Notes: generated by a model from the letters alone, not told the origin. Counted from the first letter of the stretch, positions 50,305-62,650 are shown. The stretch is 64,000 nucleotides of DNA from Acidobacteriota bacterium (GCA_040755995.1 JBFMAF010000038.1:1593-65592); one strand, 5' to 3'. Numbers and translations are program-made.

Positions 50305-53004
50305 TCACCGCGCTCCCTCGACGAGGAAGAGGTGTGAGATCGCTCTCTCGCAGACGTAGGCGTAGCTCTTCTCGTCGGCCGCGACGGCGACGTGGGCAAG
50401 CTGGATCACACCTCCGAGGTCGGCCGGCGCAAGTGTCCACACGAGCTCCCGCCGTCCGCTCTCGACGTCGACGCGCTCGACTCGGAGCGGGATCTCGCCC
50501 GACCGGTAGGCGAGCACCGAACGCCCGTTACGGGACCAGCGGATGGCCTTGTCCTCTGGCCCTGTGCCGGGAACAGAGCGCCCCTCCCCACCCGCCACGG
50601 GGTAGACCACGAATCCGCCCCCGATCGCGCTCACGAGGATCGAGCGTGCGTCCGGGGAGACGATGCCGTTCGTCATTCCGTCGGGCGTGACTTGTCGAGG
50701 CGTGTCCCCGGCGAAATGCTGCACGTAGCACCGTGTCGTGCCCCCCGCCTCGTGGCCACAGACAAGGGCGGCTCTCCCGTCCGGAAAGAACTTCGCCGAA
50801 TCGAACACGTCTATTCCGCCCCTGTCGAGCTGCCGCGCCTCCCCCGCTCCGGCCGGATAGAGCACGAGCTGCTGCGGCGAGGTCGGCACGACGGCGAGGA
50901 CCGACGTCCCGTCGGGAGAGAGGTCGAAGGAACTTCCGTCGCCAAGCCGGACGACGGGCGATCCGTCGGTGCCGCGGAGACACAAGGCGTACTGGGGCCC
51001 CACGCTCCCGTTCTGCTCGGTGAAGACGATCGTCTTGCCGTCTGTCGAGAGCGCGGGGAAGTACGAGGAATCGAGCCATTCGAGGCCGCGCTCGACTGAC
51101 TGGCCGGCACCCAGCACCGGCATCTCGGCCTGGATCTGATCGCGCGTCACGAGCCAACGGCCGTCGCGAGACGTGTCGCGGATCGTGAGGCTGCCGGCGG
51201 TCTCGATCGCGACGCGGACCCGGCCCGAGAGCGAGACGGCGTTCACGGCGAAGTCCGCGAACGAAGTGCCGCGCGAGAAGAGCACTTCTCCGCCGCCCGG
51301 CGTCCACGCCAGGCCTTCCACGCCCCAGTAGACCGGGGTCAAGATAGTCTTCCGGCCGGAGAGGTCCAGGACGGCGACGTTCCCCTGGTCGTCCCACTTG
51401 GCGCCGTGCTCGACGAAGGCGATGCGATCTCCGTGCGGGGAGAACCGAACGTCGCTGAAGTAGCCTCCCGTCTCGCACAAGACCTTGCCAATCGGGAACT
51501 CCAGCCGGTCCTTCCCACCGGCCTCGCGGATCACCGCCAGCCCGCCGCCGTCCGGCGACCAGTCCGCCTCGCGCACGTTCTCGAGCACGTCCCGCGGAGC
51601 GCCGCCTTCGAGCGGCATGCGCGCGAGTGTCCCGTGAAAGAGGTTGTGGCCAATGAACCGCGCCCGCGTCAGCACCGCCAGCTCACCCTTCGACGAGACG
51701 GCGAGCAGCTGCGCGCCGCGGAGCCCGATCGGCTTCGGGTCGGGGAAATCGGCGCGGACGGTGAAGAGCTCCGGCGTGTTTCCCTGCAAGGCCGCGCTGA
51801 AAACGATCGTGCGCCCGTCCGGAGTGGCGCGCGCGGCGAAGATCGCCTGCCGCCGCAGCGTGAGCTGCCTGTAAGAGACGGCGTGTGGCGCCCGCACCGC
51901 CCGCACCGTCGCGTAGACGGCTGCGGCCGCCACGGCCAGGAGCGCGACGACCGCGACCCGGAGCGCCCGGCGAGCCTGTGGTCTCCCGCTGGCCCTCGCG
52001 CTTCCCGCCGCGGACGACGAGACCGGCGAGAGCGCCTCCAGGTCGAAGGCCAGGTCGCGCGCTGACTGGAAGCGCTGCTCCGGCTGCTTCTCCAGGCAGT
52101 GGCGCACCACCCGATCGAGGCCCGGCGCGATCCCAGGGTTGGTGATGGAGAGGTCCGGCGGATCCTGTAGCAGGATCGCCGAGAGGCTGTCAGCGGCCGT
52201 CGCTCCGCGGAACGCCCTCCGGCCCGAAAGCATCTCGTAGAGCATCGCGCCGAAGGAGAAGATGTCGGTGCGGTGGTCCACGGTCTGGCCGCGCACCTGC
52301 TCGGGAGACATGTACCCCACGGTGCCCATCACCGTTCCCGGCTCGGTGGCCAGCCGTTCCGTGGGCGCGCTCGTTTCCTCCTCGCCGTGACGGCGCGCCG
52401 TCTTCGCGAGCCCGAAATCGAGGATTTTGACGTGCCCCTCCCGGGTGACTACGACGTTCTCGGGCTTCAGGTCGCGGTGGACTATCCCCTTCTCGTGCGC
52501 GGCCGCGAGGCCCTCGGCGATCTCGCACCCGTAGGCGAGGCACTTGCGTTGCGGAATCGGCCCGGCAGCCAGCGTCTCACGCAGCGTCTCGCCTTCCAGC
52601 AGCTCCGTGACCGCGTACGCGGTGCCGTCGTGTGTCCCGAAGTCGAAGATCGAAAGGATGTTCGGGTGCGAGAGCGCGGCCACCGCGCGCGCCTCGCGCT
52701 CGAAGCGGGCGAGGGCACCGGCGTCCTCGGCGAGCGATGCCGGCAGGACCTTGATCGCGACCTCGCGTTCCAGCTTCGTGTCGCGCGCTCTGTAGACCTC
52801 GCCCATCCCGCCCGCGCCGAGAGGGGCGACGATCTCGTAAGGCCCCAGTCGTGTACCTGGCTCGAGGCTCACCGCGCCCGCTCCGCCGGCAAGAGGTGCG
52901 AGATCGCTCTCGTGAAGGCGTAGAAGGGGCGCGTTCGCAGCGATTGGCTGTGGATCATCGCTAGTACGGCTTGAGGCGAAAAACACGTTGCGATTGAGTC
53001 GCAT
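50305..53004 (-). CDS. Ser/Thr protein kinase with TM segment and C-terminal TolB-like (PD40/WD40-like) beta-propeller
   Basis: '[14 protein letters not shown]', 'VAIKVL', 'HRDLKPENV', 'DFGLAK', '[10 protein letters not shown]'. Long C-terminal propeller repeats. Confidence 0.85.
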
Positions 53005-54827: not shown

Positions 54828-55160
54828 CTAGTCGCCGTGGTCTACGACGAACTCCCACGCGTGGCCCGAGAGCTTCAGCGCCTTGTACACCGAGGTGGTC
54901 ATGTGGCGCAAGACCAGCTTCAGGTTCCGCTTCTCGGCGGTTTCGCGCAGCTCGAGGAGTCCCCGCAGGCCGTCGCCATCCAGGTGATCGACGTCGGCGA
55001 AGCTAAGAACAAGGCGCTCCACCTCCTTCGGGATCATCTCCATCACCCGCGTCTCGATGAAGTCGATCACGTCGCGATCGAAGGTGGCCGAAGGGATGCT
55101 CAGGAGAACGGAGTCTTTACCGGTCGGCTTCAGGACCTCGTTGGCATCTATCTCAATCAT
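54828..55160 (-). CDS. STAS-domain anti-sigma-factor antagonist (SpoIIAA-like)
   Basis: 110 aa. 'VLSFADVDHLDGDGLRGLLEL' STAS core. Confidence 0.75.
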   Translation of the reverse strand: MIEIDANEVLKPTGKDSVLLSIPSATFDRDVIDFIETRVMEMIPKEVERLVLSFADVDHLDGDGLRGLLELRETAEKRNLKLVLRHMTTSVYKALKLSGHAWEFVVDHGD

Positions 55161-55178: not shown

Positions 55179-57791
55179 TCAGATTCCCTTGCCGTGGTAC
55201 GCGTCGCGGAAGAGGTTCATGAGCTCCTTGGCCAACGGGAACCGCGGGTTGCTGCGGCCGCTCGGGTCGTCCGCAGCGATCTTCACCATCTCGCTGAGAT
55301 TGTCCTCGAGCTTCTCCTCGCTGACCCCAAGCCCCGCAATCGTGCTCGGTACGTCGACCTCCTTCATCAACCACAAGATCTTGTCGATGAGCTTGTCGAC
55401 CTTCTGCGGGACGGTCTTCCCGCCGAGCCCGAGGAAGTCCGAGATCGCCGCGTATTTCTTGTCGGCGATGTATGACTTCACGTTCGGGAACGGCATGAAC
55501 TTGGTTGGAATGGCGGCGTTGTAGCGGATCGTGTACGGCAGGAACACAGCGTTCGCCCGGCCGTGAGAGATCTTGAACCGCGCTCCGAGCGCGTGAGCGA
55601 GGCTGTGGTTGATCCCCACGAACGCCGAGGAGATCGCGATGCCCGCCATGCACGCCGCGTTGGCCATCTTCGCACGCGCTTCTTCGTCCTTCCCGTTCTT
55701 GTAGGCCGTCGGGAGGTACTCGAAGACGAGCCGCAACGCCTGCAGCGCGAGCGCGTCCGTGTACTCAGACCAGAAGATCGACACGTACGACTCGATCGCG
55801 TGTGTCAGGCAGTCGAGACCGGTGTCGGCCGTCATGCCGGGAGGCATCGACATCGTCATCTCGGGATCGATGATTGCGATGTCGGGCGACAGCGAGTAGT
55901 CGCCCAGCGTCACCTTGAGGTTGTCCTTCGACGTATCCGAGATCACGGCGAACGGCGTGACTTCCGACCCGGTGCCGCTGCTCGTCGGAATCGCGATGAG
56001 GCGCGCCTTGTTGCCGCCGGTCGGGTACTCGGCCACCCGCTTCCGCGGATCCAGGAACGGAACGCTCAGCGACTCGAACTTGAGATCCGGGTGCTCGTGG
56101 AACAGCCGCATCGCCTTGGCGGCGTCGATCACCGACCCGCCGCCGATCGCGATGATCACGTCGGGCTGGTAGCGCTGGAGCACCCGAACTCCCAATGCGA
56201 TCGTCTCGTAGGTGGGCTCGACCTCGACCCCCGTGAACGAATGCACGTGCATATTGGTCTTCAGGTGCTTGCGCACGCGGTCGACCAGCCCGAGGCGTTC
56301 CAGCACGCTCTGCGTCACGATGATCGCCGTCTTGCCCTCGATCGTCCGCAGGTTCTCGATGGAGTTCTTGTTGAAGTAGATCTGGTTCGGCACGCGGAAC
56401 CACTGGTGAGCCGGCGTGCGCGACGCGACTCTCTTGATGTTCATAAGGTGATGGACGTTGACGTTCTCGATCGTGATGTTGCCGCCTCCGGTCCCGCACC
56501 CGAATGAGAACGTCGGCACCAGGTCATTGTACACACCACCCAGCGCGCCGATCGAGGCGGGCGAGTTGACGATGATGCGACCGGCGTTGATCGCCTTCGC
56601 GAATTCTTCGATCACCGGCTCGTTCTCGGAGAAAATGCTGGCGGTATGCCCCAGCCCGCCGAAGTGGCTCACGTCAAGCGACAGGTTGATCGCCTCGCGC
56701 GGCGACTTCACCGGGATCACTCCCAGCACCGGGCAGAGCTTCTCGACCGACAGCGGGTGTTCGCGCCCGACGCCGCACAGCGGCGCAATGAGCAGCTTCG
56801 TCTCGGGCGGCACCCTCAGGCCGATGAAGCTCGCGATCTCCGTGGCCTTCTTGCCGACGGCCAGCGGCTGGCACATCAGCTTCTCGCGGTCCACCAGCGT
56901 CCCTTCGAGCTGCTCGACCTCCTCCGGCGAACAGATGTACGCGCCGAGGTTCTTGAACTTGTCCAGCACCGCGGGGTAGATCTCTTCGTCCACCATGACG
57001 GTCTGCTCGGATGCGCAGATCGTCCCGTTGTCGAACGTCTTGGAAACGATGATGTCTACGACCGCCATGTCGATGTTGGCGGATTTCTCGATGTAGACGG
57101 GGGTGTTGCCGGAGCCGACGCCGAGCGCCGGCTTGCCGGAGCTGTAGGCCGCCCTGACCAGGCTCGGGCCTCCCGTCCCCCAGATCAGCGACACGTGCTT
57201 GTGGCGCATCATGTACTGCGTGTCCTGGATTGACGGAGAATCTATCCACTGGATCGTCCCCTTTGGCGCACCGTTTCTCTCGGTAGCCTCCGCCATGACG
57301 CGCGCGGCCTCGTTCGAGCATGCGCAGGCGCGGAAATGAGGGTTCACGATTACCGCGTTGCGCGTCTTGAGAGAGAGGATCGACTTGAACAACACGGTGG
57401 AGGTCGGGTTCGTGATCGGCGTGACGGCGAGTATGACGCCGATGGGCTCGGCCACTTCCTTCAGGTTCCGGTCCGGGTACTCCCGTATGACGCCCACCGT
57501 CTTCACGTCCTTGATGTAGTTCCAGACGAATTCGGTGGCCACCATGTTCTTGATGACCTTGTCCTCGATGAGGCCTATGCCGGTCTCGAGAACGGCCAGG
57601 CCTGCCAGGTTCTGTGCCTCCTCCAGGCCCGCCAGCACCATCTCCCTGGCAATCCGGTCGACCTGCTCCTGCGAAAACTGCGACAGGATCGCCGCGGCCA
57701 CGCGCGCATTCTCGACGAGCGAATCCAAATGCTCGCGTCGCCGCCGTGTCTCCTCCTCGATCAAATTCGCGTCAATTGGCTCAGTAGCCAT
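55179..57791 (-). CDS. adhE: Bifunctional acetaldehyde-CoA/alcohol dehydrogenase
   Basis: N-terminal ALDH domain, C-terminal Fe-ADH domain, about 870 aa. Start taken at MATEPID with upstream RBS, not the longer ORF start at 57893. Confidence 0.9.
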   Translation of the reverse strand: MATEPIDANLIEEETRRRREHLDSLVENARVAAAILSQFSQEQVDRIAREMVLAGLEEAQNLAGLAVLETGIGLIEDKVIKNMVATEFVWNYIKDVKTVGVIREYPDRNLKEVAEPIGVILAVTPITNPTSTVLFKSILSLKTRNAVIVNPHFRACACSNEAARVMAEATERNGAPKGTIQWIDSPSIQDTQYMMRHKHVSLIWGTGGPSLVRAAYSSGKPALGVGSGNTPVYIEKSANIDMAVVDIIVSKTFDNGTICASEQTVMVDEEIYPAVLDKFKNLGAYICSPEEVEQLEGTLVDREKLMCQPLAVGKKATEIASFIGLRVPPETKLLIAPLCGVGREHPLSVEKLCPVLGVIPVKSPREAINLSLDVSHFGGLGHTASIFSENEPVIEEFAKAINAGRIIVNSPASIGALGGVYNDLVPTFSFGCGTGGGNITIENVNVHHLMNIKRVASRTPAHQWFRVPNQIYFNKNSIENLRTIEGKTAIIVTQSVLERLGLVDRVRKHLKTNMHVHSFTGVEVEPTYETIALGVRVLQRYQPDVIIAIGGGSVIDAAKAMRLFHEHPDLKFESLSVPFLDPRKRVAEYPTGGNKARLIAIPTSSGTGSEVTPFAVISDTSKDNLKVTLGDYSLSPDIAIIDPEMTMSMPPGMTADTGLDCLTHAIESYVSIFWSEYTDALALQALRLVFEYLPTAYKNGKDEEARAKMANAACMAGIAISSAFVGINHSLAHALGARFKISHGRANAVFLPYTIRYNAAIPTKFMPFPNVKSYIADKKYAAISDFLGLGGKTVPQKVDKLIDKILWLMKEVDVPSTIAGLGVSEEKLEDNLSEMVKIAADDPSGRSNPRFPLAKELMNLFRDAYHGKGI

Positions 57792-57989
57792 GTAACACCT
57801 CTCATCCTGAAGTTCGCCAAGTTCAGCAGATAACGTAGCACATGATCTCGAACCTTTCAAAGGGAAACTGTGCGTCGTGCGCGCCCAACGCACTGCGTCA
57901 GAATCGCAGCACGCTGCGAAACTCGGATTGGGGGCAGTCCATCCACGGGCAGTTGAAATCCCGCAGCCCGGCGAATATGCTCTGACTAG

Positions 57990-58637
57990 GTGAATGGAGC
58001 GGAGTTCATGAGCACAGAGGTCTCATTCGAAGACATAAAGCAGATGTTCCGGGAGACTGACCGGAAGTTCCAGGAGACCGACCGGAAGTTCCAGGAGACT
58101 GACCGGAAGTTTGAGCAGACTGACCGGAAGTTTAAGGAGACTGACCGGAAGTTTAAGGAGACTGACCGGAAGTTCCAGGAGACGGCGCAGAGGCTGCGCG
58201 AGGTCGGCGAACAGGTGGGCGGGCTGGGCAATCGTCTGGGCGAATTCGTCGAGGGGGTAGTGCGGCCGGGACTGGTTAGAATCTTCCGCGAACGCGGTAT
58301 CGATGTCATGGAGACGCACCGTGATCTGGAGGCCACGCGCCGAGGTCTGTCCGCGCAGATAGATATTCTTGTCGTGAACGACGCGGACGTGGTCGCGGTG
58401 GAAGTGAAGTCGAAGCTGCGGACCGAAGACGTGGACGAGCACATCGAGCGGCTGGGGAAGTTCCGTGCGCTCTTTCCGCGTTATGCGGATGCGAGATTGC
58501 TCGGAGCGCTGGCCGCGATGGTCGTAAGCGACGAGGCGCTCGCCTACGCGAGCCGGAAGGGCATGTTCGTGATAGGGCAGCGCGGAGATGCGGCTGCGAT
58601 TCTGAATCCGGAGGGATTCAAGCCGGCCGAATGGTGA
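57990..58637 (+). CDS. DUF3782-like PD-(D/E)xK-fold protein with an N-terminal array of ETDRKFQ heptads
   Basis: C-terminal 'DILVVNDADVVAVEVKS' (D...E.K). N-terminal repeats encoded by a 21-bp tandem array. Confidence 0.5.
   Translation: MNGAEFMSTEVSFEDIKQMFRETDRKFQETDRKFQETDRKFEQTDRKFKETDRKFKETDRKFQETAQRLREVGEQVGGLGNRLGEFVEGVVRPGLVRIFRERGIDVMETHRDLEATRRGLSAQIDILVVNDADVVAVEVKSKLRTEDVDEHIERLGKFRALFPRYADARLLGALAAMVVSDEALAYASRKGMFVIGQRGDAAAILNPEGFKPAEW
58054..58179 (+). repeat. Six tandem copies of a 21-bp unit GAGACTGACCGGAAGTTCCAG (0-4 mismatches), in frame, encoding (E/Q)TDRKF(Q/E/K)
   Basis: Counted directly in the sequence. Inside a CDS, so not a CRISPR array. Confidence 0.9.
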
Positions 58638-58854
58638 GTGTCCAGCGAGTCCGCCCCCGGCGAGTGGACTCGCGTGTCGAATTCGATCCCCCTGTAGCCC
58701 ACGCCGAACGGGCAGCGCCCTCCGGGACCGGTGGAGATCCCGCCCAATCAGCGGCCGCGCCGCACACCCTTGGCGCCGGATCGGCGGCCGGCTGCTTTGA
58801 CAGCTCTGGAACTTGGCCATAGAATGAGTGCTGAACTTAGCTGGTGAGGTGTAT

Positions 58855-59424
58855 ATGAAGAGGATGAGTCTCATCCCGATACTCGTGCTGGCCGTATGCG
58901 CGCTGACGGCGTCGGCAGCGGTTTCGCAGACCCTTGCAGAGGTCGCGAAGCAGGAGAGAGAGAAGAGAAAAGACCAGAAGGGCAAGCCGGCCAAGACCTA
59001 TACGAATGCCGACCTGGCCAAGCTAACGGGCGGCGCTGTAACGACCGTCTACGCCGACACCACCTCCGACGATCTGACGGCCGGCGCCGGCGACGAATCA
59101 GCACAACCTGCGGCCGAGGACGAGAAGAAGGACGACAGGGGCGAGACCTATTGGCGGGCGCGGGCCGAACAGGCACGCGAGGAAGAAGCGCGGGCGAAGG
59201 AGCGACTGGAGTTGCTCATAGTGAAGCAGCAGAGTCTCAACGCCGATTTCCTCAACATCTCGGACCTGGCTCAACGAGACCTGGCCAGCGCCGAACTGCT
59301 CCGGCTGAGCGACAAGATCGAGGATGCGCGCGAGGAGGTCGAACGAACGACCCAGGTGAGGACCGACATCGAGGAAGAAGCGCGGAGGGCCGGTGCCTTG
59401 CCGGGCTGGCTACGGGGCGAGTAG
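58855..59424 (+). CDS. Secreted hypothetical protein, Ala/Glu/Arg-rich coiled-coil
   Basis: Signal peptide MKRMSLIPILVLAVCALTASA. ORF with start moved to the Met after an RBS-like GGTGAGG. Confidence 0.45.
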   Translation: MKRMSLIPILVLAVCALTASAAVSQTLAEVAKQEREKRKDQKGKPAKTYTNADLAKLTGGAVTTVYADTTSDDLTAGAGDESAQPAAEDEKKDDRGETYWRARAEQAREEEARAKERLELLIVKQQSLNADFLNISDLAQRDLASAELLRLSDKIEDAREEVERTTQVRTDIEEEARRAGALPGWLRGE

Positions 59425-59520
59425 CGCTCTGATCCTGCGACAGGACGACATCTGCTGAAGACACCCAGGAATGCGGCGCGGCGCAAGCCGTAACGAATCT
59501 CCCCGTCACTTGGTTCGTCG

Positions 59521-60453
59521 TCACGTATCTTCATGCCCTGGCTCACCGACGGCCCCTCTGTCCATGTGCAGCGCCCGGAAATCAGCGGCGCTGTATTGAG
59601 CGACGGCTGCGTTCGTCTTGATGCCCTTCCCCGCGGATTCATTGCCCTGCGGTTCTTTCGTGATCTCGGGTGACCAGAGCACTTCGGGGAATCCCGGCTC
59701 GGAGGCTCTGGCAATCAAGACCTTCATTCCGTACTTCGCGCCGAGAGACCGGACAATGCGACCATAGAGAGGATAGGAGACCATTGGCGTATGCCCTGAC
59801 CCTACCTGTTCATGTAACTCTTCAAGGGTCAACGGCGGCTTGTCTGTCTCGAATTGACCGGCGCAGGTCACCGCGAGGCCTTCAAAGAACCACGTCGGCC
59901 CCATGGCCTCTGCCGATCCATACCACGCTATTGCCACTTGTTCATGTGCCCTGTGAGCCAGTTCGTGGAGTATGAGCTGATGATAGTTCTGTTCGGCCCA
60001 CGGCCATTCGGGATAGAGCTCCTGCCAGATGTCCTGGTACGTTCCGCGAGAAACCAGAAAGAGCTTTGCCCCTTCGACAGTGCCGGAGAATGTTTCGGGG
60101 ATGCTCTCAGCGGGCGCAGCATACGCTTTCGCCAAATACTCTCGTGCCTTCGATGAACTCTCAAATATCATGACTGAGTCGATGATCTTCGGGTCAGGCA
60201 ATCTGAACCCCGAGGACAGGAAAAAGGCGGAGACTTCACCCAACGCCATTGCTACATCCTTCTCGTACATGCTGCGTTCATGCTCAAGTGACGCGGGCAC
60301 CTCAAATCGTAAGGGTTGAGCGCCGACTTCTGGAGTAGTGCGGCCGCGAAGGGGTGCGTTGCAGGCTGCCAAGAGGAACATGGCTGGGACCAGGCGGTGG
60401 GCAAGAGTGTTTCGGATTAGGGGCACGTATGACTCCTTTCGCTTTGCAGGCAT
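59521..60453 (-). CDS. Putative zincin-like metallopeptidase (HExxH: ILHELAHRAHE), lipoprotein-like N-terminus
   Basis: HExxH + downstream E. 'MFLLAAC' lipobox-like. Confidence 0.45.
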   Translation of the reverse strand: MPAKRKESYVPLIRNTLAHRLVPAMFLLAACNAPLRGRTTPEVGAQPLRFEVPASLEHERSMYEKDVAMALGEVSAFFLSSGFRLPDPKIIDSVMIFESSSKAREYLAKAYAAPAESIPETFSGTVEGAKLFLVSRGTYQDIWQELYPEWPWAEQNYHQLILHELAHRAHEQVAIAWYGSAEAMGPTWFFEGLAVTCAGQFETDKPPLTLEELHEQVGSGHTPMVSYPLYGRIVRSLGAKYGMKVLIARASEPGFPEVLWSPEITKEPQGNESAGKGIKTNAAVAQYSAADFRALHMDRGAVGEPGHEDT

Positions 60454-60510
60454 CTAATTGTCCGGCCAGGCTGCCGCTCACTCAACCGAAGACTATCTCT
60501 GAGGTTGATT

Positions 60511-60708
60511 TCAATTCGACTGTCCCGCGCCCAGCTCCCGGATCCAATCCTCTATGACCTGGGCGGCATGTTTGCTGTAGTTGCTATGACCGTCTCGGGC
60601 CAGAATCACTCGGTATCCCAGCTTCTTCGCACCCATACAGGTGGCTCTGACGCACGCATAGGTGACCAGACCCGTGACCACCAGACTTCCTATGCCCCTT
60701 GAGTCCAA
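60511..60708 (-). pseudogene. C-terminal fragment of an isochorismatase/cysteine-hydrolase family protein
   Basis: 'LVVTGLVTYACVRATCMGAKKLGYRVILARDGH' is the conserved catalytic-Cys region. No N-terminal half in frame. Confidence 0.5.
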
Positions 60709-60805
60709 TTCCTTTTCCTTCGTGGCATCGGCTCAGTTCAACCACGACTTGCAGGCAGCCCTGCCGCTCCGCTGTGAAGTCCCATTGGTTAGACCGCTCC
60801 GGCAT

Positions 60806-61519
60806 TCATCCGGAACATCTCCATGATCGGCACCGCCCCGCGGCTGCGCTGGGCGACACCAGGGCCATCGGCTGAGAGGGGGGATAGATGTTGAGGGCCT
60901 GATCGCCACCGATTCGGGCCACTTCAGCCTCCCAGTCTGGCCAACGCCAGGTCTCGTAGAACAGGTCGACGTTGCCTGTAAAGCACCAGCATAGGAAATC
61001 ACTGTATCCGCACTCCATGTCCTCCCACCGAAGTGAGTCGGGTGCGAAATACCACACCGTGTGCTTGCTGCCCCCGAAGCGACCACCGTCGAGAGCGAAG
61101 AACCCACCCACGACATCATCGGCGACTAGCACCCAAGCGGGAGGCGTATCGCTTTCCTGCATACCACACGCGAAGTTCCAGTCAGGCAAGGAGCGGGGCA
61201 AACGAGGATGGCCTGAGCCGAGAATCCTCATCCATCCATGATCTACCAGAAGGCCACCCGTATGAAAGATCACGGCACCCATCGGAGACCGCGTCGTCAC
61301 CTGCACTGAGACGAGAGCCTGGCCCGCGTGGACGGAGGGTGGTAGAACCTCGACCGGCCTGACAGCCTTGCTGATCCACCCTTGCACCAGTGGCCACGCC
61401 GGCTCGTCTCGATTCACCAGTTGGTCGAGATCCTTCTTCACGTAGCCCATCTCTGTGTCGGTCCAGCGGCGGAGTTCACCCTCGATGGCCCGCGCCACTC
61501 GGGTGGAACCACGTGTCAC
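60806..61519 (-). CDS. Conserved hypothetical protein (Trp-rich; possibly DUF2625-like)
   Basis: 237-aa ORF with plausible codon usage. No recognisable catalytic motif. Confidence 0.4.
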   Translation of the reverse strand: MTRGSTRVARAIEGELRRWTDTEMGYVKKDLDQLVNRDEPAWPLVQGWISKAVRPVEVLPPSVHAGQALVSVQVTTRSPMGAVIFHTGGLLVDHGWMRILGSGHPRLPRSLPDWNFACGMQESDTPPAWVLVADDVVGGFFALDGGRFGGSKHTVWYFAPDSLRWEDMECGYSDFLCWCFTGNVDLFYETWRWPDWEAEVARIGGDQALNIYPPSQPMALVSPSAAAGRCRSWRCSG

Positions 61520-61636
61520 ACCCCTTTGATATCGGACTCATGGACACTCTGGAGACCTCACGGTGCCTCGTCACGCCGTTCTGCGCCTGTCACCCCTGTC
61601 GTGCACGCCTTCCTGCTGTCGGTCAAACGGCAACGG

Positions 61637-61933
61637 TCACGGGCGGCGGTTGAGCACAGCGGAACTGCGGTCCGGTGCAGCGCCTTGCTGCGCGGCCTTG
61701 ACGATTTCGCACTTTGCATAGACGAATTCAGGGTCAAGATCAATTCCAGAGTCCCATTCGATAGTGTCGAAGGCAACTCGCACCCGCTTGAAAGCCTCCT
61801 GGTCCTTGAGCCGTTGGAACACGCCGAACCCCAGAATCTGCTTCATGTCCAGCGTACCAGTCTCGCCGTTGTCAAAGACGATAGAAAGCATGTAGTCTTC
61901 ACCGGGCACTACTTCTCTCACTGATGGATACAT
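61637..61933 (-). CDS. DUF2442-family small protein
   Basis: 'YMLSIVFDNGETGTLDM...FDTIEWDSGIDLDPEFVY' is the DUF2442 signature. Confidence 0.6.
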   Translation of the reverse strand: MYPSVREVVPGEDYMLSIVFDNGETGTLDMKQILGFGVFQRLKDQEAFKRVRVAFDTIEWDSGIDLDPEFVYAKCEIVKAAQQGAAPDRSSAVLNRRP

Positions 61934-61944
61934 CAGCCTGCTCC

Positions 61945-62172
61945 TTACTGAAGAGGTTGGATCTTGAATGTCTCTTCCCCATTCATCACCAGGTTCCAGT
62001 CGGCCATGAGTTCGTTCTGGTGCAGTTCAGCCCATGCCAGCACCAGTTTCGTTTGCTTAGTGGGAAGATCTCCTTCTGTCACTTCGCACGTACGAATCCC
62101 CAGTGTGGCTTTGTGTTCTACATAGTACACATGGAAATGGTCGGCATGCTTCTTCCCTCTTCGGTGAATCAT
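61945..62172 (-). CDS. DUF4160-family small protein (partner of DUF2442)
   Basis: 'HFHVYYVEHKATLGIRT...GDLPTKQTKLVLAWAELHQNELMADW'. Confidence 0.6.
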   Translation of the reverse strand: MIHRRGKKHADHFHVYYVEHKATLGIRTCEVTEGDLPTKQTKLVLAWAELHQNELMADWNLVMNGEETFKIQPLQ

Positions 62173-62650
62173 ACGCCTTATCTTCTGTCGGCGAACCGAT
62201 GTTCAGACGGTTTTCGCCTGGACCCTGTCTCTCGCCTCTCCCTCCAGATGCTACGCCGCGCGGAAAACGGCGTCAAGATGGTCGCCATCAATGATTTGCC
62301 GAACTCCCGAGGCCTTCGCCGCTTCTTCGTGGCTACCGCATGACACGCCCCGCATCTCTCCTCACAACGTGTCCACCGGGCCCTGGCCGTCAACGAATGT
62401 AGACACGTAAACCACGGTTGACATCGACGGTATGTCGGCTCAGATACCCCGGCGCGTCCTCGCCCGAAGCACGCCTGCGCCGTTCTGCGGGACTTCGAGA
62501 CCGGCCCGTCTCTCTCAACGTCTGTCCCCGCCCGCGCGCCGTCAACTGGCGTTGACATCGGGGCCGCGCACGACCCTTCTCTTTCAACAGCTTGCGGTTC
62601 CGGCCGGTTGGCATCGAGCACGCACTCCTCCGCTTGCCAGGAGGTGCAAC

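Follow-up and report, generated by a model that had tools for sequence, protein, structure and literature searches.

Prokaryotic PD-(D/E)XK endonucleases that carry an N-terminal coiled-coil stalk are known under the names DUF3782 and DUF1626, the latter being PDDEXK_10 (PF07788, COG5493). In the available text of Knizewski et al. (2007, PMC1913061) and Hartmann et al. (2016, PMC4786415), this coiled-coil-plus-PD-(D/E)XK architecture is already described; the latter identifies DUF3782 with the coiled-coil stalks of this endonuclease family and assigns plain heptad stalks to the bacterial members and beta-layer nonads to the crenarchaeal ones. Tcar0761, a DUF3782 coiled-coil protein without a nuclease domain that is close to the crenarchaeal stalks, is presented in the same text as a trimeric coiled coil (PMC4786415). 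Here we report a bacterial protein of like organization, encoded in a 64,000-nucleotide stretch from an Acidobacteriota bacterium (GCA_040755995.1, JBFMAF010000038.1:1593-65592; the whole of this stretch is referred to as the window), in which six near-identical 21-bp tandem units encode successive heptads of the stalk. The protein is probably a small, chromosomally encoded "stalked nuclease" of the DUF3782 family, with the repeats coding for its stalk. The array is genuine, and a preliminary description of it, made from the sequence alone, had read it in an essentially correct way. Unlike this protein, the crenarchaeal DUF3782/DUF1626 members have nonad or hexad beta-layers (MATKDD) and often lack the lysine of motif III. 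Since the architecture is known and the gene is annotated as DUF3782, it represents a new member within a known architecture rather than a new kind of system. Neither a family-wide ETDRKFQ-type heptad under purifying selection, nor its turnover at the DNA level, nor strain-level ladders of 7 residues is described in the available text of the literature searched, and these three points are developed below.

Tandem Repeats Finder (TRF) reports one outstanding array in the 64-kb window, at 58046-58183, with a period of 21, 6.6 copies, 91% matches, 0 indels, and a score of 213; the runner-up among its 31 rows for the window scores 55. The same 21-nt spacing was recovered in a separate repeat search (family D1). 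The six in-frame units lie within 1 nt of the positions given in the preliminary description (58054-58179). They stand head to tail, with no spacers, inside a conserved open reading frame (ORF), which sets them apart from a CRISPR array, as had also been maintained. The 209-residue ORF product is 100% identical to NCBI MEW6367722.1 (P0001), [quoted passage not shown], from a 76-kb contig of a metagenome-assembled genome (MAG). An in-frame GTG at 57990 is an alternative start, and residues 75-215 of the preliminary description are numbered from it. The G+C content at third codon positions of the coding sequence is 0.76. Its parts are as follows.

58008-58637, plus strand: coding sequence of the 209-residue protein, probably a DUF3782-type stalked PD-(D/E)XK nuclease; ATG at 58008, stop codon at 58635-58637 (ORF list, NCBI identity)
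58026-58052, plus strand: N-terminal cap heptads FEDIKQMFR, F7-R15, family form xxEDIxxLFRE; start of the a/d register (alignment consensus, register analysis)
58053-58178, plus strand: six 21-bp units encoding (E/Q)TDRKF(Q/K/E) heptads, residues 16-57 (TRF score 213, codon table, repeat search)
58179-58268, plus strand: degenerate heptads and the conserved stalk-nuclease junction ETAQRLREVGEQVGGLGNRLGEFVEGVVRP, residues 58-87 (alignment, predicted local distance difference test [pLDDT], Pfam)
58269-58634, plus strand: predicted PD-(D/E)XK nuclease domain, residues 88-209, with three beta strands, helix, strand, helix, strand(s)
58362-58364, plus strand: GAT codon of D119, the motif II Asp of D...ExK, invariant in 58 of 58 aligned sequences
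58401-58409, plus strand: GAA GTG AAG codons of E132-V133-K134, the motif III ExK, with E132 and K134 invariant in 58 of 58

The codons of a unit are GAG ACT GAC CGG AAG TTC/TTT CAG/AAG, and the encoded heptads are, in order, ETDRKFQ, ETDRKFQ, ETDRKFE, QTDRKFK, ETDRKFK, and ETDRKFQ, with the register F(a) Q(b) E(c) T(d) D(e) R(f) K(g). Half of the six units are exactly ETDRKFQ, and the other three deviate at the b/c positions; compared in pairs, the units average 90.5% nucleotide identity, and units 4-6 contain a 37-nt perfect match at a 21-nt offset. As the source is a MAG, the copy number of this 126-bp near-identical array may be misassembled if the assembly was built from short reads, but gross misassembly is less likely because the units carry unit-specific substitutions. 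A 323-residue antisense ORF (58023-58994, minus strand) spans the whole nuclease gene, with the repeats read as LLELPVS units; lying opposite a coding sequence with thousands of homologues, it was taken as spurious, an artefact of the G+C-rich sequence.

The catalytic signature of the PD-(D/E)XK fold, D...(D/E)-x-K on strands 2 and 3, is present as D119, E132, and K134. An AlphaFold2 (AF2) model computed with the 58-homologue alignment has a pLDDT of 89 and consists of a single helix over residues 7-95 followed by strand-strand-strand-helix-strand-helix-strand; the pLDDT is 88-92 over residues 11-40 and falls to 58-73 around residues 61-80. The model and the invariant residues support the nuclease-like fold that had been proposed behind the coiled-coil array, and the domain may act as a metal-dependent nuclease. 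In the junction, G78, F80, and P87 are invariant in the same alignment, and this region falls within a partial match to Pfam DUF3782 (PF12644; 24.0 bits, E = 4.3e-05, residues 42-101; gathering threshold, 24.4). The homologues P0017 (24.5 bits) and P0063 (30.3) exceed that threshold. In all, a word-index search recovered 4947 homologues of the 209-residue protein at E<=1e-3. PDDEXK_10 (PF07788, formerly DUF1626) matched residues 118-152 at 16.5 bits (E = 0.008), below its threshold of 21.2; judged from sequence, it is a related family of which the window protein is no member by the Pfam threshold. Marginal Pfam matches to NERD, PDDEXK_10, and Hjc fall on residues 89-152. A further family, DUF8196 (PF26618), appears in the database's precomputed assignments of many homologues, and the Beggiatoa protein bears this name in UniRef. 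PF26618 is not among the 25 Pfam families shown for the window protein and was unmatched (E<=0.001) in Pfam scans of P0002, P0007, and P0086, three homologues with a precomputed PF26618 assignment; the model probably lies outside the Pfam copy used, or else its matches fall below what is listed.

Other collections yielded little beyond the helical part. NCBIfam and PADLOC gave coiled-coil noise (SMC, Rad50, JetC) and a marginal PD_DExK match, which supports no named defence system; PHROGs matched the helical part only, to tape-measure-like coiled coils, with the nuclease domain unmatched; and the PDB sequences, searched with phmmer and a profile, contained no close solved relative but only coiled-coil noise and a weak match to VC1899. 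The nickase N.BspD6I, an XisH-like protein, and many restriction and defence nucleases are the listed comparisons beside the predicted nuclease-domain fold. The C-terminal domain of NucS/EndoMS, AF1548, and the nuclease domains of Can2/Card1 are likewise minimal PD-(D/E)XK folds, with 13-18% identity to the window protein, but they carry other N-terminal modules (the NucS DNA-binding domain, the CARF sensors) in place of a coiled-coil stalk, and the comparison carries no functional equivalence. RmuC, in which a long N-terminal coiled coil precedes a restriction-endonuclease-like domain, has an analogous two-part design; it is larger and membrane anchored, and it is not known to contain tandem identical heptads. 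Its homology to the window protein is not significant (Pfam E = 0.04, coiled part only).

The codons of the array bear on its age. ACT accounts for 10% of the Thr codons in the confident genes of the window but stands in five of the six units; the corresponding figures are 11% of Phe codons against three of six units for TTT and 27% of Arg codons against all six for CGG. Such rare codons common to the units imply that the DNA identity reflects their common descent, beyond selection on the peptide. Further, in the closest relatives, which share 62-71% identity in the nuclease domain, the stalk measures 35-64 residues and comprises just 1-4 heptads, for the most part ETDR[RK]M; hence, the six units constitute a lineage-specific expansion. 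To judge from the repeated codons and from these relatives, the array is a recent, lineage-specific expansion at the DNA level, in agreement with the preliminary description.

Elsewhere in the family, the same peptide is encoded by old DNA. In Thiocystis (L001) and Beggiatoa (L002), ETDRKFQ is kept while the codons are mixed (GAA/GAG, ACC/ACG/ACA/ACT, GAT/GAC, CGA/CGG/CGC/CGT). Among 42 genes, the same-codon fraction at identical residues between units ranges from 1.0 to 0.33, with the window array at 0.84; one gene (L048) combines 91% amino-acid identity between units with a fraction of 0.33, and another (L039) has eight units of 100% amino-acid identity at 0.74. The retention of the heptad residues despite scrambled codons in these four genes points to purifying selection on the heptad peptide. 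A logo of 391 heptads from 66 relatives, a sample drawn from the word-indexed search and biased towards ETDRKF, gives T(d) 95%, D(e) 81%, E(c) 80%, F(a) 77%, and R(f) 76%, with K/R/Q at g. An unbiased set was obtained with the nuclease domain alone as the HMMER query against 1.84 billion cluster representatives; it comprises 2921 clusters at the 50% identity level with E<=1e-3, 1138 of them with E<=1e-10. Nearly all of the best 150 of the 2921 have a charged, repetitive N-terminal helix of 35-160 residues; among the 133 that possess an N-terminal part, two or more TDR motifs occur in 35 and two or more [TASN][DE]R motifs in 72. Intervals from one motif to the next in this set are 7 (97 cases), 11 (40), 18 (17), or 14 (11) residues, which are classic coiled-coil periodicities. 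By these codon and residue comparisons, the heptad motif is shared across the family and its conservation lies in the protein sequence, with arrays of all ages coexisting.

With the peptide under selection and arrays of all ages present, a DNA-level function is excluded and a neutral linker is disfavoured. The notion that the repeats act as DNA or RNA, as protein-binding iterons or a structured RNA, with the coding incidental, has practically nothing to recommend it: although the 21-nt spacing equals two helical turns of B-DNA, homologues conserve the peptide and not the nucleotides, the synonymous-site divergence of the relatives already refutes it, thousands of proteins show homology to the ORF from end to end, and an Rfam search of 57000-59600 gave no match other than a single sub-threshold chance one. 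We also regard it as improbable that the array is a neutral low-complexity linker whose copy number drifts by 21-bp slippage and whose sequence and length are irrelevant beyond tethering. Stalks of 2 to about 20 heptads, even inside 90%-identity clusters, do suggest a weak constraint on length, and the closest relatives function with 1-4 heptads. A neutral linker would, however, be expected to lose both sequence and phase, whereas here the heptad residues are kept while synonymous sites are randomised, T(d) is nearly universal in the logo, insertions and deletions are limited to register-preserving sizes, and old, long arrays with diverged codons survive, as in the eight-unit case above.

The number of heptads is highly variable. 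For the top 120 homologues, the distance from the cap to the junction, taken modulo 7, is 3 in 66 proteins, 0 in 27, 4 in 11, and 1 in 3; these classes, expected for zero to three stutters of four residues, take in 107 of 110 proteins. Among 38 pairs with nuclease-domain identity of at least 93%, the stalk length differs in 19, and all 24 internal gaps of near-identical pairs measure 7 (10 gaps), 14 (6), 21 (1), 11 (5), 4 (1), or 18 (1) residues. Within 90%-identity clusters, the full-length members share the N-terminal cap and a 137-residue C-terminal part, while their stalks step by 7, as in these four clusters (stalk lengths in residues).

First 90% cluster: 49, 56, 63, 77, 84, 91, 112
Second 90% cluster: 42, 49, 63, 70, 77, 84, 91, 105, 112
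Third 90% cluster: 52, 73, 80, 94, 108, 115, 122, 143, 150
Fourth 90% cluster: 70, 84, 98, 105, 112

A single syntenic locus of a Methylovulum-like organism provides the clearest pair of alleles, encoding 210 residues on 20 contigs (L091) and 259 residues on 14 contigs (L093). The gene order is MCP, a DUF1640-like gene, cheR, the nuclease gene, cheW, cheB, and moeA; identity in the flanks is 98.4% and 99.76%, and a 147-bp indel of seven heptads is the sole difference within the gene. The gene two places 5' of this nuclease gene (L091 2451-2924, L093 2430-2924) encodes a DUF1640/CCDC90-like, C-terminally membrane-anchored coiled coil, which itself differs between the two strains by exactly one heptad, DKRFEQV, present in 3 versus 4 copies and resembling the DRKFQET unit of the nuclease. 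DUF1640 and DUF3782 are linked through a shared beta-layer motif in the available text of Hartmann et al. (2016, PMC4786415).

Taking these comparisons together, strain-level hypervariability of stalk length in the DUF3782 family is real, and the heptad number, as read from the aligned stalks, changes fast and only in register-preserving steps (7n, or 7n+4/11/18). The length-variable locus proposed in the preliminary description thereby holds for the family, through the ladders of 7 residues and the 147-bp indel, while the window gene's own cluster has one member, the search for relatives having reached none closer than about 60-70%. Its suggestion of a contingency locus stands in so far as the array has near-identical tandem DNA units able to slip, as simple-sequence contingency loci do; strict adaptive, reversible switching is unsupported, the changes being in-frame lengths and not on/off states. 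We therefore consider it unlikely that reversible slippage in heptad number switches enzyme properties frequently inside a population as an adaptive form of bet-hedging. The perfect match across units 4-6, the many length alleles inside 90% clusters, and the two alleles at one locus, each found in many samples, are what such a mechanism would produce, but because all changes are in frame on/off switching is impossible, the protein, having no signal peptide, is no exposed antigen, and the stability of the alleles on 14-20 contigs suggests inheritance over rapid switching.

The periodicity of these changes accords with a coiled coil. The a/d seam is continuous through F7, I10, F14, T17, F21, T24 ... 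F56, T59, L63, V66, V70, L73, L77, F80, and V84, and insertions come in sizes of 7n or of stutters and hendecads, as in parallel coiled coils. A parallel arrangement is further favoured by the basic residues at g and the acidic ones at e, which would attract each other as g-e' pairs; an antiparallel stalk, a ruler with nuclease heads at its two ends, is improbable, as it would bring about repulsive e-e' and g-g' contacts. We therefore propose that the stalk may be a parallel homo-oligomeric coiled coil, for which the relatives and the residue pattern suggest a trimer as the most likely stoichiometry: the T at d is beta-branched, Tcar0761, the DUF3782 coiled-coil protein resembling the crenarchaeal stalks, crystallised as a trimer, and a profile of the stalk aligns weakly (E = 0.0012) to a PDB chain of the trimeric adhesin NadA with ADTDAAL heptads. 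Alternatively, the stalk could be a single alpha-helix of the ER/K type, serving as a rigid ruler to the N-terminal tip of a monomer or of a nuclease-domain dimer. Each heptad has four charged residues out of seven, the sequence contains E(i)-K(i+4) and R(i)-E(i+4) pairs, and the monomer helix of the AF2 model is straight and confident over residues 11-40; nonetheless, we give this alternative a low probability, as the F(a)/T(d) seam is kept with the g-basic/e-acidic pattern usual in parallel coiled coils, related stalks have crystallised in trimeric coiled-coil form, and the indels follow the 7/11/18 periodicities.

Several observations weigh against a trimeric, length-variable stalked nuclease of the DUF3782 family taking part in genome conflict. 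The DUF3782 score of the window protein lies 0.4 bits under the gathering threshold, and the AF2 run was made on the monomer only. With one strongly hydrophobic residue per heptad and a high charge, a single stable helix is conceivable. The trimerisation motif R-hxxhE (Kammerer 2005), Arg(g)-h(a: I/L/V/M)-x-x-h(d: L/I/V)-Glu(e) (PMC3653964), is not found in the heptads, in which K(g)-F(a)-Q-E-T(d)-D(e) matches 0 of 4 defining residues while having the same charge pattern. As to length variation, some of the metagenomic variants may be assembly artefacts, and a same-locus comparison for the window protein met with a 90% cluster of n=1 and, in a metagenome scan with the C-terminal domain, a best identity of 45%; a look-up of the exact protein returned no contig. 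Finally, no defence gene, methylase, or antitoxin stands next to the gene, here or in relatives.

The family is nevertheless large, and its genomic settings are diverse. A scan of one genome per species produced 387 confirmed loci; the best 80 of these come from Competibacteraceae, Chromatiales, Methylococcales, relatives of Thiomargarita/Beggiatoa, Magnetococcales, Desulfamplus, cyanobacteria, and others, with multiple family copies in several genomes. Tandem paralogues occur as well, with four in succession in "Ca. Contendobacter odensis" (L072 3064-6525) and pairs at four further loci (L015, L020, L031, L061). A conserved neighbour or small partner ORF was sought across 83 loci, and none was found, the best recurring family being present at 5 of the 83; an apparent cluster of small ORFs at seven loci was set aside, since these are minus-strand ORFs at the 5' edge of the gene and most likely the antisense of the repeat region outside the tblastn match. 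Nor was a sensor partner found next to the gene. The gene is a chromosomal singleton without a conserved partner. As a separate observation, a recurring neighbour in Desulfamplus (L017 137-1066, minus strand; relatives in L025 and L040) has a short tandem peptide repeat of its own, GRQEGRQEGRQEG.

Such a distribution raises the possibility that the gene is a free-standing selfish element of the homing-endonuclease kind, inserted between host genes, with the stalk merely an oligomerisation handle. Members stand singly among unrelated housekeeping genes (adhE in the window, accA/tilS in Thiocystis, malate synthase/LysR in Beggiatoa) and inside the cheR-cheW chemotaxis operon of the Methylovulum-like genome, their distribution is patchy with several paralogues per genome, and the catalytic residues are invariant. 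We hold this explanation to be doubtful, though: relatives are absent from 72,556 PLSDB plasmids, 50,697 INPHARED phages, and 2.9 million IMG/VR viral contigs, the repeat search found no clearly significant flanking terminal repeats, and the tandem paralogues of "Ca. Contendobacter odensis" look like ordinary gene duplication.

In the window, the nuclease gene is preceded by an intergenic region that it shares with a divergent gene, and the following features were located in or beside it.

55179-57791, minus strand: adhE-like bifunctional aldehyde/alcohol dehydrogenase, divergent from the nuclease gene
57953-57981, plus strand: weak promoter-like (sigma-70-like) site, TTGAAA-17-TATGCT, 9/12 of the consensus, in the intergenic region divergent with adhE (consensus scan)
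57996-57999, plus strand: Shine-Dalgarno-like GGAG, 8 nt 5' of the ATG (read from the sequence)
58001-58004, plus strand: second GGAG, 3 nt 5' of the ATG (read from the sequence)

A perfect 13-nt inverted repeat has one arm in this region (TCAGAATCGCAGC, 57898-57910) and the other inside the 3' end of the coding sequence (GCTGCGATTCTGA, 58593-58605); roughly estimated, chance alone would give about 0.01 pairs of this kind in 1.15 kb. The upstream neighbours include a STAS-domain protein (54828-55160, minus strand) and an 899-residue Ser/Thr kinase with a PD40/WD40-like repeat match (50305-53004, minus strand). The product of a downstream ORF (58855-59424, plus strand), unmatched in Pfam, combines a lipoprotein-like signal peptide, MKRMSLIPILVLAVCALTASAAV, with a body that is rich in charge and probably helical; the best sigma-70-like site of the region, TTGACA-17-TAGAAT (58797-58825, 11/12), lies ahead of this ORF. 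Beyond it, the G+C content falls to 0.54-0.58 over 59600-62200, against a window mean of 0.63, and small genes are found there, namely a 310-residue ORF with no Pfam match, DUF2625 (60806-61519), and DUF2442 (61637-61933). This segment beside the nuclease gene may be a variable or acquired one.

With regard to mechanism, the long helix of residues 7-95 passes straight into the PD-(D/E)XK fold in the model. We postulate that the first core helix of the nuclease is continuous with the stalk and that Mg2+-dependent nuclease heads would be gathered at the C-terminal end of the coiled coil. The number of heptads might shift when the 21-bp units slip during replication or recombine unequally, each unit adding or removing about 1 nm of stalk. 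Two known systems offer parallels. In the stalks of NadA-type trimeric autotransporter adhesins, in-frame repeats alter the length of a helical spacer in register-preserving steps, as here, but those adhesins lie on the cell surface and face immune selection, whereas the window nuclease has no evident N-terminal signal peptide. In the central spacer of HsdS, of the type I restriction enzymes EcoR124I/II, a 4-residue repeat present two or three times likewise changes the spacer length in frame, and such a change can alter the specificity of a DNA enzyme. The HsdS spacer, however, separates two DNA-reading domains, while the stalk considered here is probably parallel and bears nuclease heads; as a parallel stalk leaves the geometry of the heads unchanged, an effect on specificity is speculative.

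The role of the gene is the least certain part of this analysis. A part in genome conflict, as a defence-like or a selfish nuclease, appears likelier than one in core DNA repair, because the gene is a singleton, partner-less, patchy, often multi-copy, and length-hypervariable. A bolder version, in which an unusual trimeric PD-(D/E)XK nuclease engaged in genome conflict carries the stalk as an adaptive ruler whose length varies at the population level, is a minority possibility that we would not put forward as the expected outcome. Were it true, selection would keep the sequence of the heptad, as a trimer-specifying F-x-x-T-D module, while maintaining many lengths per species; length would alter the reach of the clustered heads or the engagement of a partner or inhibitor with the conserved N-terminal tip, analogous to the retuning of type I restriction enzymes by changes in the repeat number of the HsdS spacer.

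The DUF3782-type family is a large one, extending over Gammaproteobacteria, Cyanobacteria, Magnetococcales, Desulfobacterales, Acidobacteriota, and, as the related DUF1626, Crenarchaeota. It presents a rare pairing in an apparently intracellular enzyme, namely strong purifying selection on a 7-residue unit together with variation in unit number among nearly identical strains, like that of variable-number tandem repeats, and so constitutes a clean natural system for the evolution of coiled-coil length under register constraint. For annotation, it accounts for the length variation of such genes and for their mislabelling as tropomyosin-like or SMC-like, and the length alleles at a syntenic locus offer a concrete handle on the role of these nucleases.

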